Both the position numbers and the translations under genes were made by a program. Source: Candidatus Latescibacterota bacterium (GTDB lineage Bacteria; Latescibacterota; UBA2968; UBA8231). From it: a stretch of 64,000 nt of DNA. Shown piece by piece: positions 3,377-9,157 of this stretch. Numbering within the stretch: the first letter of the stretch is position 1; each line of letters starts with the position of its first letter. The notes under the pieces are model-generated. The model was not told the DNA's origin, did no database searches, and saw only the letters and a list, made by a program, of their open reading frames with translations. The DNA is taken from NCBI GenBank assembly GCA_965206595.1, contig OZ242214.1, positions 6,462,675 to 6,526,674 on the forward strand, in the 5' to 3' direction.

Positions 3377-4324
3377 ATGCCCCCCACCCGGCATTCCCTT
3401 ACCGTAGGCACTCGCGGCAGCAGACTCGCCCTCGCCCAGGCGGAGCGCGTCTGCTCCCTCCTCCGGGAAACGGCCGGCGACCGCCCCAAGCTACGGCTCG
3501 AGATCGTCCGCACCGAGGGGGACCGTTCCCGCGGTCCCCTCTCCGAGATCGGGGGACAGGGGGTGTTCACCGCGGAGCTGGAGAAGGCGCTGCGGGACGG
3601 GCGGGTCGACCTCGCCGTCCACAGCCTCAAGGATCTTCCGACCGCGGTCCCTGCCGATCTCGAGCAGGTCGCAGCGCCCGCCCGCGCCGATGTGCGCGAC
3701 GTGCTTGTCACCGCGGGGGACCGCGGCCTCGAGGAGCTGCCTGAGGGAGCCCTCCTCGGTACCGGCAGCCCCCGGCGCCGCGCCCAGTTGCTGGCGCTCC
3801 GCCCCGACCTGCGGTTCGACGACATCCGCGGCAACGTCGACACCCGCATCGGCAAGGTCGGCGCAGACGGGCTCGACGGCGTCGTGCTGGCCGCCGCGGG
3901 CCTGCAGCGGCTCGGCCTGCTGAACCGCGTCAGCTCCTACCTCGACACCGACCAAGTGCTGCCGGCCCCCGGACAAGGAGTGCTCGGGCTGCAGATGCGT
4001 TGCGGCGACCCCCGACGCGCCCTGGTGGCGGCTCTGAACCACGGGCCGACCTGGGCCGGCGCCGCGGCCGAACGCAGCCTCCTCCACTCCCTCGGCGGCG
4101 GCTGCCGCGCCCCGGTGGCCGCCTGGGGCCGCGAGATCAGCGGCGAGCTGCTCCTCGACGGGCTTGTCGCCTCCGCGGACGGCCGCGAGCTGCTGAGGCG
4201 AACCGACGAGGGCCTTCCCGGCGCGGCGGACACCCTCGGACGCGACCAGGCCGCGGAGCTGCTCCGCGCCGGAGCGGACCGGCTGCTGGAGCTATCCGGG
4301 GTCAAGGACACGGCCTCCCCATGA
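3377..4324 (+). CDS. hemC: Hydroxymethylbilane synthase (porphobilinogen deaminase)
   Basis: LTVGTRGSRLALAQAE...GGQGVFTAELEKAL..DGRVDLAVHSLKDLPT...GNVDTRIGKV...GGGCRAPVAA; ATG at 3377 inside ORF 3269..4324. Confidence 0.85.
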   Translation: MPPTRHSLTVGTRGSRLALAQAERVCSLLRETAGDRPKLRLEIVRTEGDRSRGPLSEIGGQGVFTAELEKALRDGRVDLAVHSLKDLPTAVPADLEQVAAPARADVRDVLVTAGDRGLEELPEGALLGTGSPRRRAQLLALRPDLRFDDIRGNVDTRIGKVGADGLDGVVLAAAGLQRLGLLNRVSSYLDTDQVLPAPGQGVLGLQMRCGDPRRALVAALNHGPTWAGAAAERSLLHSLGGGCRAPVAAWGREISGELLLDGLVASADGRELLRRTDEGLPGAADTLGRDQAAELLRAGADRLLELSGVKDTASP

Positions 4325-5874
4325 ACTTCGCGCCGGCAGCGCCGGGAACCGTCTACATCGTCGGGGGCGGCCCGGGAGACCCGGGCCTGCTGACCCTCAA
4401 GGGGGCCCACCTGGTCTCCGAGGCGGACGTGATCCTCTTCGACGACCTGCTCGACCGGCGCCTCCTCGGCCTCGCCCGCGAGGACTGCGAGCAGGTGTAC
4501 GTCGGCCATCGCGGCGGCGCCGGCAGCGGCGGCGCGCGGAAACAGGAGGAGGTCAACGGACTGCTAATTCAATTGGCGCGCGCGGGCCGCCGGGTGGTGC
4601 GCCTGAAGGGGGGGGATCCCTACATCTTCGGCCGCGGCGGCGAGGAGGCGGTGGCGCTCGCCGAAGCCGGGGTGCCGTTCGAGGTGGTCTCCGGAGTGAG
4701 CGCGGCCTCCGGGGTTCCGGCGTACGCCGGCATTCCGCTGACCCACCGCAACGTCTCCGCGGCCGCGGTCCTCGTCACCGGACACGAGGACCCCGCGCGC
4801 AGCGCCCCGGGGGTCGACTGGGAGCTGCTTTCCCGGCTCGACAGCACCCTCGTCGTCTTCATGGGGTCGCGCAAGCTCGGCGAGATCGCGACGACGCTGA
4901 CCCGGCACGGGCGCTCGCCCGAAACCCCCGCCGCGGCCATCGAGTGGGGGACGTGGCCGCACCAGCGCACCGTGGTCTCGACCCTGGGACAGGTCGCCGA
5001 TGCCGCCAGGGACGCGGCCCTGGAGTCGCCGACCCTCGTCCTTGTGGGAGAGGTGGTCTCCCTGCGCGAGCAGCTCAACTGGTTCGAGGGGAAGCCGCTG
5101 TTCGGCCGGCGCATCCTCGTCACCCGCAGCCGCGAGCAGGCCGGCCGCCTGCAGCTGATGCTCGAGGCGGAAGGGGCCGAGGTCCCGGCGCTGCCGCTGC
5201 TGGAGATCGGCCCGCCCGCGGACTGGAGCGATCTCGACGACGCCCTCGGCCGCCTGCCGGAGTTCGCCTGGATCCTGTTCACCAGCCCCAACAGCGTCAG
5301 CTATTTCTTCGACCGCCTCGCTGCCGGGGGGATGGACGCCCGCGCCCTGGGCGGCTGCTCGATCGCCGCGGTCGGCCTGTCGACGGCGCGGCAGCTGCGC
5401 CGCCGCGGCCTGGTGCCCGACCTCGTCCCCCGGGAGCAGTCCCAGAAAGGGCTCGCCGCGGCCTTCGAGGAGGTCGCGGTCGCCGGGGCCAGCTTCCTTG
5501 TGCCTGCCTCTTCCATCGGCCGCACCGGTCTCGACGACGCCCTCGCCCGCAGGGGAGGCCGCGTTTACCGGGTCGTCGCCTACGAGAACCGCCCCCCCGA
5601 CCCGGAAACCGTCGAGCTGCCCGCGGCCCTGGTCGCAAACCGGCTCGACATGATCGTCTTCGCCAGCCCTTCCTCGGTGCGCAACTTCCTCACCGTCTGC
5701 GGCCCGGAAAAGGGGAGGGCCCACCTGGCCGCAACCGCCCTCGCCTGCATCGGCCCGACCACGGCGCAGGCGGTCCGCGACCTCGGGTTCGAGGCCGCCC
5801 TGCAGCCGGCAGAGAGCAGCATTCCCGCCCTCGTGCAGGCGATCTGCACCCACTACGCCGGGGAGCGCCCGTGA
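4321..5874 (+). CDS. cobA: Uroporphyrinogen-III C-methyltransferase fused to uroporphyrinogen-III synthase (CobA/HemD bifunctional)
   Basis: N-terminal VYIVGGGPGDPGLLTLKG...GGDPYIFGRGGEE (SAM-dependent SUMT) and a C-terminal HemD-like half (RILVTRSREQAG...IVFASPSSVRNF). ATGA overlap with the hemC stop; the upstream part of ORF 4000..5874 is rejected. Confidence 0.85.
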   Translation: MNFAPAAPGTVYIVGGGPGDPGLLTLKGAHLVSEADVILFDDLLDRRLLGLAREDCEQVYVGHRGGAGSGGARKQEEVNGLLIQLARAGRRVVRLKGGDPYIFGRGGEEAVALAEAGVPFEVVSGVSAASGVPAYAGIPLTHRNVSAAAVLVTGHEDPARSAPGVDWELLSRLDSTLVVFMGSRKLGEIATTLTRHGRSPETPAAAIEWGTWPHQRTVVSTLGQVADAARDAALESPTLVLVGEVVSLREQLNWFEGKPLFGRRILVTRSREQAGRLQLMLEAEGAEVPALPLLEIGPPADWSDLDDALGRLPEFAWILFTSPNSVSYFFDRLAAGGMDARALGGCSIAAVGLSTARQLRRRGLVPDLVPREQSQKGLAAAFEEVAVAGASFLVPASSIGRTGLDDALARRGGRVYRVVAYENRPPDPETVELPAALVANRLDMIVFASPSSVRNFLTVCGPEKGRAHLAATALACIGPTTAQAVRDLGFEAALQPAESSIPALVQAICTHYAGERP

Positions 5875-6893
5875 GCCCGGAGCGCTACCCCGCCGGCAAG
5901 CTCCCCGCGGAGCTGCTCGGGCGCATGCTCTCCCGCTACGCTGCGCGGGAGGACGAACGCCTGCTAGTTCCCCCCGGCATCGGCGAGGACGCCGCCGTCA
6001 TCCGCTTCGGGGACCGCTGCGTGGTCGCCAAGACCGACCCCATCACCTTCGCCACCGACGAGGCCGGCTGGTACGCCGTCCACGTCAACGCCAACGACGT
6101 CGCCGCCATGGGAGCGACCCCACGCTTCTTCCTCGCCTCCGTCATCCTCCCCGAGGAGCAGGCGACGGAAGCCCTGGTCGAATCGGTGTTCCGCTCGATC
6201 GACGAGGCGGCGCGGCAGTTGGGGATCACAGTATGCGGCGGCCACACCGAGATCACCCGCGGCATCGACCGGCCCATCGTCGTCGGGCAGATGCTCGGGG
6301 ACGTCGACTGCGGAAAGGTGGTGCGCTCCTCCGGCATGGTGCCGGGAGACGCGGTGCTGCTCACCAAGGGGATGGCGGTCGAGGCCACCGCCATCATCGC
6401 GCGGGAAAAGCGCGGGGAGCTGGAGGAACGGGGGTTCGACACCGGCTTCCTCGATGGCTGCGCCGGGTATCTGCGCGACCCCGGCATCAGCGTGGTTCGG
6501 GACGCCGCGATCGCTACCGGGACGGCAGAGGTGCACGCCATGCACGACCCGACCGAAGGGGGGGTCGCCACCGGTCTGGCCGAGATCGCAGCCGCTTCCG
6601 AAGTCGGCCTCGAGGTGTTCGGGGACCGCCTGCGCTGCAGCGACGAATCGCGGCGCCTGTGCGCCGAGTACGGCCTCGACCCGTTCGGGGCGATCTCCTC
6701 AGGCGCCCTTTTGATCGGCTGCCCGCAGGAGGCGGCGGACCCAATCCTGGCGGCGCTGGCCGAAGCGGGGATCGGCGCCGGGATCGGCGCCCGTGCGGTC
6801 GACCTGGCCGCCGGTCTGCAGCTGCGCCGCGGCGGGCGTCTCGAACCGATGCCCCGGTACGAGGTCGACGAGATCACCCGCCTGTTCGGCTAG
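5871..6893 (+). CDS. AIR-synthase-related protein (PurM/HypE/ThiL superfamily), function unknown
   Basis: GEDAAVIRFGDRCVVAKTDPITF...HVNANDVAAMGATP...CGGHTEI...HDPTEGGVATGLAEIA is a PurM-like fold. GTG start at 5871 overlaps the cobA stop. Confidence 0.65.
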   Translation: MSPERYPAGKLPAELLGRMLSRYAAREDERLLVPPGIGEDAAVIRFGDRCVVAKTDPITFATDEAGWYAVHVNANDVAAMGATPRFFLASVILPEEQATEALVESVFRSIDEAARQLGITVCGGHTEITRGIDRPIVVGQMLGDVDCGKVVRSSGMVPGDAVLLTKGMAVEATAIIAREKRGELEERGFDTGFLDGCAGYLRDPGISVVRDAAIATGTAEVHAMHDPTEGGVATGLAEIAAASEVGLEVFGDRLRCSDESRRLCAEYGLDPFGAISSGALLIGCPQEAADPILAALAEAGIGAGIGARAVDLAAGLQLRRGGRLEPMPRYEVDEITRLFG

Positions 6894-7143: not shown

Positions 7144-7998
7144 GAACCTATCTCAAAATTGAAATTGTTTAAGCAAAATCAAAATGGATGCAAGTTGGAC
7201 GAAGCCAAGAAAATTCTCCGGATACAATTCCCAGCGAGTGATCACTCGACGCTGCCATTGAAGCCAAGCAAAGAATCTCTCAACCATCCAAGGCCGCACA
7301 TAACGCCGCAATCGCCGTCCATCCTGAGTCTTTTTCTTGGTCCGATTCTGGCGATGCGGGGCGATCATCTCGATCCCGTCTTTCTTAAGCTCTTCATCCA
7401 ACGAATCGCTGTCGTACGCCTTGTCGCCGATCAAGTTGTCAGGTTGGTCTTCGATGAGGTAAAAGTCAAAGGTCAACTGAACCAGCGTCACTTCATGATG
7501 GTTCGCTGCATGCGTGCTCACCGACAAGGGAAGCCCATTGCCGTCCACGATCCCCATGACCCGCACCCCCTTACCTCGCCTGGTGTGGCCGATATCGGCA
7601 CCTCCACCCTTGGCCGCCGAGAACATGCCGTCGATGAAAGCCTCCGATTCGTCCAAGCCCCCTTGCTCGTGAAGGGTCTGGGCCAGGTCCATGAGAACTT
7701 CGCGTACCACCCCTTGACGACACCCGTTTTGAAAACGGCGATGCACGGTTTTGTAGTTCGGATAGCACGGCGGCAACATATGCCATTGAGCCCCGGTGTT
7801 TAGAATCCAAAGAACGGCTTCAAAAACATCACGGGTGCAAACCGGTTTGCGACCCCGGATGGCTCTTGGGACGAAGTTCTTCAGGAAAGTGATGCCGGAT
7901 TCGTTGCCATTGCATGTCGGTCAGGTTGACCATACACCAATGGTACATCACTGTCATTTCGAAAACAAGTTTAAGTTTGCCTATTTTGAGATAGGTTC
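7144..7998 (-). mobile_element. IS5-family insertion sequence (IS427/IS1031-like, ~855 bp) with 16-bp terminal inverted repeats GAACCTATCTCAAAAT
   Basis: Terminal IRs at 7144-7159 and 7983-7998. Lower GC than the flanks. Encodes a DDE transposase. Flanking AAG/AA direct repeat is consistent with a short target-site duplication. Confidence 0.8.
7153..7933 (-). CDS. IS5-family DDE transposase, two overlapping ORFs (orfA 7829..7933, orfB 7153..7828) joined by a frameshift
   Basis: orfA MVNLTDMQWQRIRHHFPEELRPK... stops at 7829. In the adjacent frame ...RDVFEAVLWILNTGAQWHMLPPCYPNYKTVHRRFQ... continues to 7153, the classical IS5/IS427 two-ORF transposase organisation. Confidence 0.8.
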
Positions 7999-8086: not shown

Positions 8087-8100
8087 GGCACGCCTTTTGC
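8087..8100 (+). promoter_or_regulatory. Sigma54 (-24/-12) promoter aGGCACGccttTTGC
   Basis: Matches the TGGCACG-N4-TTGC consensus with correct GG/GC spacing, ~74 bp upstream of the ATG at 8174. Near-identical core to the promoter at 12980. The flanking ~100 bp is homologous between the two loci, including a shared AAAAACAAC-NN-GTTA 15-mer. Confidence 0.55.
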
Positions 8101-8173
8101 GAGTCTTCGAAATCGACAGGGAAAGGGGGAGCCTGTCGGGCCCATGCCCGGGCAGAACAAGGAGGAGAAACAG

Positions 8174-9157
8174 ATGCTTTTTTCCGTCACAACGAATCGG
8201 TGGAGCATGGCCCTCGTCCTGCTCATCGGGCCGGCCCTGTCGGCCGAAGCCCACGTCGGCGGTCGAGTGTTCCCGATTCCCGAACTCACCGACGAAATGC
8301 TGGCCGAGATCCAGCTCGACGGCTTCGTGGAGGAGTGGTCGGATCTGATCGGCGAACCGACCCTGACCCTGCTTGACTTCACCCACGGAGGGGGGGGGGG
8401 GGGGAGCCTCGATCCGTCGGATATCGACTTCCGGATCTGGCTGGCCTGGCACGATGATCCGGCTCGTATCTATGCAGCCTTGGTGGTCGCCGATGACGTT
8501 TACAAGAATACTCACACTTACGATGTGGATTGGGCCACCTCACTAAAAAGTAGCATGGTTGGCGGCAACGACAGTATTCGCCTTGGAGTCGACGGAGATC
8601 ACAGCGGCGGTCCCGGGTTTGTTGATCAATCATTCGAAACAAAGGAACTCGCGGAGGCCGAACTCGTGAAGGTCTCTGGGAAGACCCAGATGTATGAGGC
8701 CATTTCCCGCACTCCTGATGGACCGACCGTGGATGCCCGGAGATCCAGGTACTGGAGCGGGGTCTTCTCCTGGATGGCCCTTCCTCCCTTCGCGGAGGCC
8801 GGCGGCAGGGTAGCCGGAGAAACGCCGGTCATCTGGTCGATCGAGCTGTACATCACGCCGTTCGACCACAGGGGGGAGGAGTTGACCAGCCCCGAAGGGA
8901 GTGTGATAAGCGATCTGAGCGCCGATCGGTTCATCGGCTTCGCGATTGGGGTGTTTGATGAGGACGGGCGGGATCCTCATACGGAACCAAGGAGGTTGAT
9001 ACCGGAAGCCTTGGCGGGTCCCGATCATGAAGTTTTTTCCGATATGTCTGATTTTCGCGCCGACAATTTTCTCGATGGGCTGCTGCTGCCGGCTGGAGGC
9101 ACTGCGGTCGAGTCGGTTACCTGGGGCCGGATCAAGGCTTCCCTGGAACTGAAGTAG
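8174..9157 (+). CDS. Secreted protein, paralog 1 of a four-member family of unknown function; signal peptide MALVLLIGPALSAEA|HVGGRV
   Basis: RBS AAGGAGGAG at 8158-8166. Shares AHSGGRV(F/Y)PI...DEML..I.LDDG..EW..L.GEP..TLLDF, IWLAWHDDP.R.Y, DGDHSGG, YEAI.RT..GP, PPYG..GGGV.GE.PVI..IELY.TPFD and a C-terminal WGRIKASLE with the ORFs at 13463, 14512 and 15586. Confidence 0.8.
   Translation: MLFSVTTNRWSMALVLLIGPALSAEAHVGGRVFPIPELTDEMLAEIQLDGFVEEWSDLIGEPTLTLLDFTHGGGGGGSLDPSDIDFRIWLAWHDDPARIYAALVVADDVYKNTHTYDVDWATSLKSSMVGGNDSIRLGVDGDHSGGPGFVDQSFETKELAEAELVKVSGKTQMYEAISRTPDGPTVDARRSRYWSGVFSWMALPPFAEAGGRVAGETPVIWSIELYITPFDHRGEELTSPEGSVISDLSADRFIGFAIGVFDEDGRDPHTEPRRLIPEALAGPDHEVFSDMSDFRADNFLDGLLLPAGGTAVESVTWGRIKASLELK
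8390..8404 (+). repeat. G15 homopolymer inside the coding sequence of paralog 1 (encodes HGGGGGGS); candidate slipped-strand phase-variation tract
   Basis: ggag + 14 g + agcc read directly. It lies in the loop that is hypervariable among the four paralogs (DFTHGGGGGGSLDPS vs DFSEDQGFPLDPS / DFQTHSNFLPPDPS / DFSSQNDFEALDPS). Confidence 0.7.

Follow-up and report, generated by a model that had tools for sequence, protein, structure and literature searches.

Simple-sequence contingency loci are represented by the coding poly-G and poly-C tracts of Neisseria (pgtA, lgtA/C/D), Haemophilus influenzae, Campylobacter jejuni and Helicobacter pylori, as set out in the work of Moxon, Bayliss and Hood. 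Here we consider a run of 15 consecutive G residues (G15) at 8390-8404 on the plus strand of a 64-kb stretch of the genome of an uncultured Candidatus Latescibacterota bacterium (contig OZ242214.1; the whole stretch of 64,000 nucleotides is called the window below), which falls in the first part of the coding sequence for a predicted secreted protein of 327 amino acids (8174-9157, plus strand). The tract resembles the described loci in that its length is polymorphic in near-identical strains, and in that length changes other than multiples of three truncate the predicted product whilst changes of 3 nt give predicted in-frame variants. It differs from them in that its host is an uncultured bacterium known from metagenomes and not a host-adapted pathogen, in that there is a single tract in 64 kb, and in that the tract is evolutionarily young, absent from sister lineages and known here from assemblies alone. 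A second comparison is offered by the 7C tract of glpK in Mycobacterium tuberculosis, which reportedly undergoes reversible homopolymer frameshifts in a high-GC bacterium (findings of 2019 ascribed to Bellerose and to Safi); the two cases have in common a coding G/C homopolymer, a GC-rich genome and frameshift variants, but the tract described here is twice as long or more and lies in a gene for a secreted protein rather than a metabolic enzyme. We consider it probable, at roughly 60%, that the G15 is a genuine slippage-prone coding homopolymer which gives rise to both ON alleles, varying in glycine number, and OFF alleles, in a manner like that of a contingency locus.

The tract comprises exactly 15 G, with GGA before it and AGC after it, and in the reading frame from the ATG at 8174 the codons run CAC, GGA, five times GGG, AGC and CTC. 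Together with the preceding GGA it encodes six glycines, at residues and codons 72-77, which appear as H-G6-S inside DFTHGGGGGGSLDPS; the in-frame position and the glycine count put forward in an earlier, sequence-only reading of this DNA were thus confirmed by the sequence and by translation of the open reading frame (ORF). Elsewhere in the window no homopolymer exceeds 8 nt. Run statistics for the window show that the counts of G/C runs drop about 0.23-fold with every extra base, and extrapolation of this decay gives an expectation of 5.5e-5 runs of 15 or more per 64 kb, or about 0.006 per 7 Mb, in keeping with the same reading's description of the tract as extraordinary. The share of GGG among glycine codons is about 24% in eleven long ORFs of the window, which were picked by length with no other validation. 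The occurrence of the G15 is far beyond chance. The genome had also been described as about 68% GC; the figure proved to be lower, at 63.8% for the window and about 59-61% around the gene. Homopolymers of about 7-9 nt or more are long enough to slip, and the G15, lying inside an ORF, is well within this range.

Clustered at 90% identity, the window protein grouped with three other products, of 338, 92 and 200 amino acids, and the contigs encoding them were then compared. A G run at the same codon position was found in five assemblies including the window, the other four of which come from four other metagenome samples, with one contig per lineage from each sample. Alleles were measured as the stretch that separates the CAC codon for His from the CTC codon for Leu (in one distant orthologue, L023, Leu replaces His and the stretch runs from CTC to CTC). 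The window reads GGA-G15-AGC (21 nt, in frame) and L001 (ERZ25068966, an 885 kb contig at 13x) reads GGA-G18-AGC (24 nt, in frame, seven glycines); the allele of L004 (ERZ25071132, a 1.01 Mb contig at 11x) is GGA-G8-AGC (14 nt, out of frame), and L002 (ERZ25072076, 6x) and L003 (ERZ25067264, 10x) have GGAA-G8-AAGC in common (16 nt, out of frame). The window, L001 and L004 are 99.3-99.9% identical in the flanks of the tract. In the 12.6 kb compared between L001 and L004 there are 4 mismatches (99.889% identity), and the tract is the sole indel. The window is about 99.4% identical to both over about 8.3 kb and 98.9% identical over a further 3.2-3.6 kb; aligned with L001 (about 11.9 kb) and with L004 (about 11.4 kb) it shows, apart from the tract, just two indels, each a 1-nt change in a C run. 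A control run, G8 at 4608-4615, is also G8 in L001, L002 and L004. As estimated from these contigs, the indel rate at the tract is far above background.

The arrangement at the tract site differs between the sampled lineages. The more distant orthologues (85-90% protein identity) carry interrupted, in-frame versions of 15-18 nt, for example GGAGGAGGTGGGGAA, in which the pure run is at most G7. The allele is GGAGGAGGTGGGGAAAGC in L020 (18 nt), GGAGGAGGGGGGGAAAGC in both L021 and L023 (18 nt) and GGAGGGGGGGCAAGC in L022 (15 nt), all of which are in frame, and sister lineages read GGA, GGA, GGT, GGG and GAA at the loop. A scan of the GTDB species representatives gave relatives at 64% identity or less, all of them members of the paralog family in two Latescibacterota metagenome-assembled genomes (MAGs), and no extra alleles of the tract.

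The predicted in-frame products are 327 amino acids long in the window and 338 amino acids, with the seven glycines, in L001. The allele of L004 is predicted to give a 131-amino acid fragment and a 200-amino acid C-terminal fragment, and that of L002 and L003 a product of 92 amino acids, the tail of which corresponds to the +1 frame of the window sequence. Shifts simulated in the window gene gave 94 amino acids for G16 and 123 for G14, with native sequence to about residue 77 in both; the sequence-only reading, which had a shift of one base truncating the protein after about 75 residues, was therefore close as to where the native part ends but not as to the length of the products. The L004 gene differs from that of L001 by the tract and one substitution and is otherwise intact, from which the L004 OFF allele would be a very recent event. 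Outside the tract, the indels common to L002 and L003 are all multiples of three, and the tract would thus be their only shared frame-breaking lesion; each of the two also has one private 1-bp indel in its copy of the gene. A second homologue search, with the G14-type out-of-frame product as query, returned for this lineage the 131-amino acid fragment of L004 alone, the further matches being unrelated truncated fragments on short, low-coverage contigs. Predicted in-frame and predicted out-of-frame alleles of an otherwise intact gene thus exist.

The following sequence of events would account for these alleles. A glycine-rich loop encoded by mixed GGN codons probably lost its interruptions in one lineage, leaving a pure G run which then expanded and contracted. 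During replication the nascent and template strands would misalign inside the run, such that G residues are gained or lost; gains and losses in multiples of three would change the number of glycines in a flexible loop (six in the window, seven in L001), whilst all other changes would shift the frame and bring in a stop after 94 or 123 residues, of which about 77 are native, in a product lacking the beta-sandwich. The population would thus hold ON alleles that vary in loop length alongside OFF alleles. Reversible ON/OFF change is to be expected by analogy with contingency loci, since any run of G8 to G18 should keep slipping in both directions. We infer the slippage mechanism, its reversibility and its rate from the alleles, and likewise the expression of the gene (possibly sigma-54 dependent) and any benefit of switching.

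The likeliest of the alternatives is that the tract is a slippage hot spot with no switch function: a recent, non-adaptive by-product of a glycine-rich loop in a GC-rich genome, sited in a redundant, possibly decaying gene copy, in which the OFF alleles represent loss of function on the way to a pseudogene. We regard this as unlikely, though a series of observations weighs on its side and against the interpretation favoured here. The long tract (15 or more) is found in 2 of the 5 contigs, the window and L001, which belong to one shallow lineage, and across diverged strains the tract is not kept uninterrupted (it is interrupted and no longer than G7 in L020-L023). The sequence-only proposal of a phase-variable contingency locus is supported in part, on good comparative evidence: near-identical strains have a polymorphic tract with in-frame and out-of-frame alleles, but more distant ones do not retain a pure run. 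L002 and L003, which come from different samples, carry one and the same OFF allele, which would be stable there. When the window is compared with these two, the ratio of nonsynonymous to synonymous substitution rates (dN/dS) is 0.22 upstream of the tract, on the basis of 5 changes only, and about 0.85 downstream of it, as against 0.32-0.53 in comparisons with intact orthologues and a baseline of 0.32-0.44 in a further member of the family that has diverged to a similar degree. The OFF allele of L002 and L003 may thus be a fixed or settled pseudogene; gene conversion between paralogs could also inflate their dN/dS. The regulatory surroundings of the gene look damaged. In L003 the -24 box of a promoter-like element upstream of the gene is altered to GGTAC, and extra sequence is inserted between the box and the ribosome-binding site. 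As for the window lineage, the end of an insertion sequence (IS) of the IS5 family lies 89 bp upstream of the -24 promoter-like box, and the neighbouring gene for a sigma-54-dependent activator carries a frameshift common to the window, L001 and L004, the gene being intact (1070 amino acids) in L003; with its activator frameshifted and an IS just upstream, the window copy may be poorly expressed or decaying. The protein family is, in addition, highly redundant: at least 4 copies are found here, and a related MAG has at least 12 loci on a single 6.78 Mb contig. The window has only the one long tract, with none in the paralogs, whereas classical phase-variable organisms carry many.

Several of the same comparisons nevertheless speak against a hot spot on the way to decay. 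Both of the long-tract alleles (15 and 18) are in frame, and the OFF allele of L004, in an otherwise intact gene one substitution away from that of L001, looks very recent and not like old decay. The dN/dS against intact orthologues argues for constraint on the ON form, and with slippage in both directions reversion would be expected whether it is selected or not.

A second alternative is that all of the strains have one stable tract length, the differences and the apparent frameshifts being due to poor homopolymer calling in long-read assemblies of low coverage (6x-13x); on long-read platforms most of the error that remains is in the length of homopolymers. The contigs have names of the form ctgN_13x_l, with coverage tags of 6x-13x on L001-L004, and by this pattern they look like metaMDBG long-read assemblies, the platform itself being inferred. 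Errors do occur, as seen from the private 1-bp gene-breaking indels in L002 and L003, which are likely to be consensus errors at 6-10x and call for caution over any frame call in low-coverage long-read contigs. No relative was found when the JGI metagenome contigs were scanned with the protein, and hence these gave no independent short-read view of the tract. However, the differences between the alleles are of 3, 7 and 10 nt and not of 1, and L001 and L004 match at their other G8 runs and, over 12.6 kb, show no indel besides the tract. L002 and L003, although from different samples, have an identical 16-nt allele with flanking A substitutions. Furthermore, the genes on contigs labelled 1x and 3x are mostly intact, with about one frameshift per 4 kb, which argues for reads of high, HiFi-grade accuracy, and a G8 is short enough to be called reliably; since even such low-coverage contigs keep their genes mostly intact, the differences of 7-10 nt would not be consensus noise. 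On the evidence of these contigs we take the gaps of 3, 7 and 10 nt between alleles to be real, and likewise the 16-nt allele found unchanged in two samples; we consider it improbable that calling error explains them. The lengths 15 and 18 could themselves be off by about 1, which also counts against the favoured interpretation, and because exact lengths of 15-18 nt are uncertain by this amount the window allele is probably, and not certainly, ON. The private 1-bp indels lie in non-homopolymer contexts, near 3474 and near 6713 in L003 and near 6644 in L002, where they break a cobA/hemD-type gene and a family gene.

Other artefacts were dismissed. The possibility, raised in the sequence-only reading, that the tract was created by the assembler was ruled out by the four other assemblies, and a two-colour short-read poly-G artefact or a chimeric join by in-frame homology on both sides together with the G run at the same codon in those assemblies. 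The suggestion that the window assembly is riddled with homopolymer frameshifts was rejected as well, as the only neighbouring frameshift (at 11060) has an AA/A context and recurs in three assemblies.

Slippage of RNA polymerase on the G run, as an alternative or an addition, is very improbable: where a run exceeds the 8-9 bp of the RNA-DNA hybrid the strands can realign, and mixed-length transcripts would blur a switch at the DNA level, with some full-length protein from OFF alleles and some truncated protein from ON alleles, but slippage of the bacterial enzyme is documented mainly for A/T runs and would leave the DNA length differences among the assemblies unexplained.

A more far-reaching proposal is that the coding poly-G is a true contingency switch acting on one member of a possibly sigma-54-controlled, CBM9/DOMON-like family, and that it provides stochastic ON/OFF expression together with graded variants of the glycine loop. 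We hold this to be doubtful. If it were true, the switch might vary a ligand-binding loop or allow escape from phage or predators which use the protein as a receptor; phase variation by simple sequence repeats, known almost entirely from host-adapted pathogens, would be extended to an uncultured phylum, and the uncharacterised protein family would gain a first functional handle. The case is in any event a concrete and testable candidate in an uncultured phylum, slipped-strand phase variation having been studied almost entirely in cultured, host-adapted pathogens. A literature search for homopolymer phase variation in HiFi metagenomes gave nothing relevant. If heterogeneity were confirmed at the level of reads, accurate long-read metagenomes could be searched for more such switches, and one member of a secreted CBM9/DOMON-like family would appear to be under fluctuating selection; if it were not, the tract would serve as a warning that, in long-read MAGs, homopolymer lengths and the reading frames called from them should be backed by reads.

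The position of the glycines in the predicted structure fits with variation in tract length. In an AlphaFold2 model the loop that holds the tract sits between a strand at residues 69-71 and another at 84-94, flanked by conserved LLDF and DPSDxDF blocks, and the 10-residue block containing it (71-80) has a mean predicted local distance difference test score (pLDDT) of 78, compared with 95 in each of the neighbouring blocks. Across 108 homologues the loop varies in sequence and somewhat in length. It had been called the single most variable loop of the family; among the 108 members it ranks about fourth of the variable 7-residue segments. As modelled, the loop is flexible and tolerant of changes in glycine number. 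Two further family members, P0135 (113 amino acids, on an 85 kb contig) and P0138 (88 amino acids), also end early owing to frameshifts at or close to this loop, e.g. SVDFLNTGKNHMIRP…, which may reflect short repeats at the loop or sequencing error.

The gene was delimited by its ORF and translation. A Shine-Dalgarno-like AAGGAGGAG at 8159-8167 (plus strand) lies 6 nt ahead of the ATG at 8174, for which reason this start was preferred to the one in the public annotation, an ATG at 8144 (P0001, 337 amino acids). Look-ups by exact sequence, for the window protein and for P0001, returned no contig. Residues 1-26 (8174-8251, plus strand) form a probable Sec signal peptide, MLFSVTTNRWSMALVLLIGPALSAEA|HVGG, with a basic n-region, a hydrophobic core and an A-x-A-like end, and pLDDT is low at residues 1-15; this call was made by inspection of the translation and not with predictor software. 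The protein had been described as secreted and as a surface protein, and the first part of this is supported by the visible N-terminal signal peptide, whilst the second is conjecture.

A search of Pfam-A gave no family for the protein at E-values up to 0.1, the CBM9 models included, and NCBIfam gave no meaningful match. The database search for homologues returned 671, and the AlphaFold2 model, built from 108 of these, has a mean pLDDT of 84.8 and a predicted template modelling (pTM) score of 0.84. The best matches to the model among PDB structures in Foldseek are CBM9 modules, namely 7nwn (E-value 4.8e-8, template modelling (TM) score on the target 0.72) and 1i82 (7.9e-8, 0.69), both with a probability of 1.00; next come 4jpq, a putative carbohydrate-binding protein from Bacteroides, and then the DOMON-like subunits NxrC (7b04) and EbdC (2ivf). 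The predicted fold, a beta-sandwich, is superimposable on solved CBM9/DOMON structures without membership of their sequence profiles. The likeness consists in this predicted fold, with Foldseek E-values of 5e-8 to 4e-3 and target TM scores of 0.69-0.72 for CBM9; however, sequence identity to the structures is just 8-12% and there is no Pfam match, the window protein has about 100-135 residues more than a CBM9 module, and its family has a conserved, disordered C-terminal tail of its own, ESVxWGRIKASLE. The sequence pattern D-x-D-F-R-I-W-L-A-W-D/H-D...L-Y-V-A is one which we take to resemble that of CBM9-like proteins. The tail, (A)VESV(S/T)WGRIKASLE(ME), at 9101-9154 of the window (residues 310-327), is near-invariant in the family and the paralogs, with pLDDT below 50 and predicted disorder. 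It may act as a sorting or secretion signal or as an interaction peptide, and when compared with known C-terminal sorting families it matched none.

The paralog family invoked in the sequence-only reading is real. Three tandem copies were found by tblastn and alignment on the plus strand of the window (13463-14407, 14512-15489 and 15586-16575, spanning 13463-16575), which are 49-53% identical to the tract gene by tblastn and 51-55% by protein alignment, and the equivalent loop contains a homopolymer in none of the three. From the sequences recovered, the protein belongs to what is a large Latescibacterota paralog family. The spacers between the tandem paralogs (14405-14511 and 15487-15585) are almost identical (…GATGGAATAGCATGCGTTTCGG.CACTTCGTCCATCCGAAGTCGTTCCAG…GAACTAA(A)GGAGAG…), as are, very nearly, the signal-peptide regions, and the array suggests recent duplication or gene conversion.

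The promoter-like element is a match to GGCAC-N5-TTGC of the sigma-54 -24/-12 type, GGCACGCCTTTTGC, at 8087-8100 on the plus strand, 74 nt upstream of the start codon. Two exact matches to this pattern are present in 64 kb, both on the plus strand, one at the tract gene and the other at 12980-12993 ahead of the tandem paralogs, and they flank the gene for the sigma-54 activator. This arrangement weakly suggests that the family is under the control of sigma-54 and a bacterial enhancer-binding protein, as two or more matches were also obtained in 12 of 100 shuffles. The activator (9510-12930, minus strand), between the tract gene and the tandem paralogs, was recognised by a domain search as having Reg_prop, Y_Y_Y, AAA+ and HTH_8 domains. 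One extra base at about 11060 (CAGACAAGAGG as against CAGAC-AGAGG) splits its gene into two ORFs that overlap, 9510-11132 and 10258-12930, and judging from the presence of this base in three assemblies the activator is probably a real pseudogene or a split gene in the window lineage.

The IS5-family element occupies 855 bp (7144-7998, minus strand), with perfect 16-nt terminal inverted repeats (GAACCTATCTCAAAAT) at 7144-7159 and 7983-7998 and a DDE_Tnp_1 transposase at 7153-7779. The window, L001 and L004 all carry it, whereas L002 and L003 lack it, the site being empty in L003. At position 7853 within the element the window has C4 where L001 and L004 have C3, and the transposase is 208 amino acids long in the window and 267, with DUF4096, in L004. 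L001 (3581-4748) and L004 (3177-4344) also carry an insertion of about 1.17 kb, made up of a DDE_3 transposase fragment and a 184-amino acid ORF, which the window lacks at the corresponding site (about 6890-6893). The mobile-element content is thus, by comparison of the contigs, different among strains that are about 99% identical.

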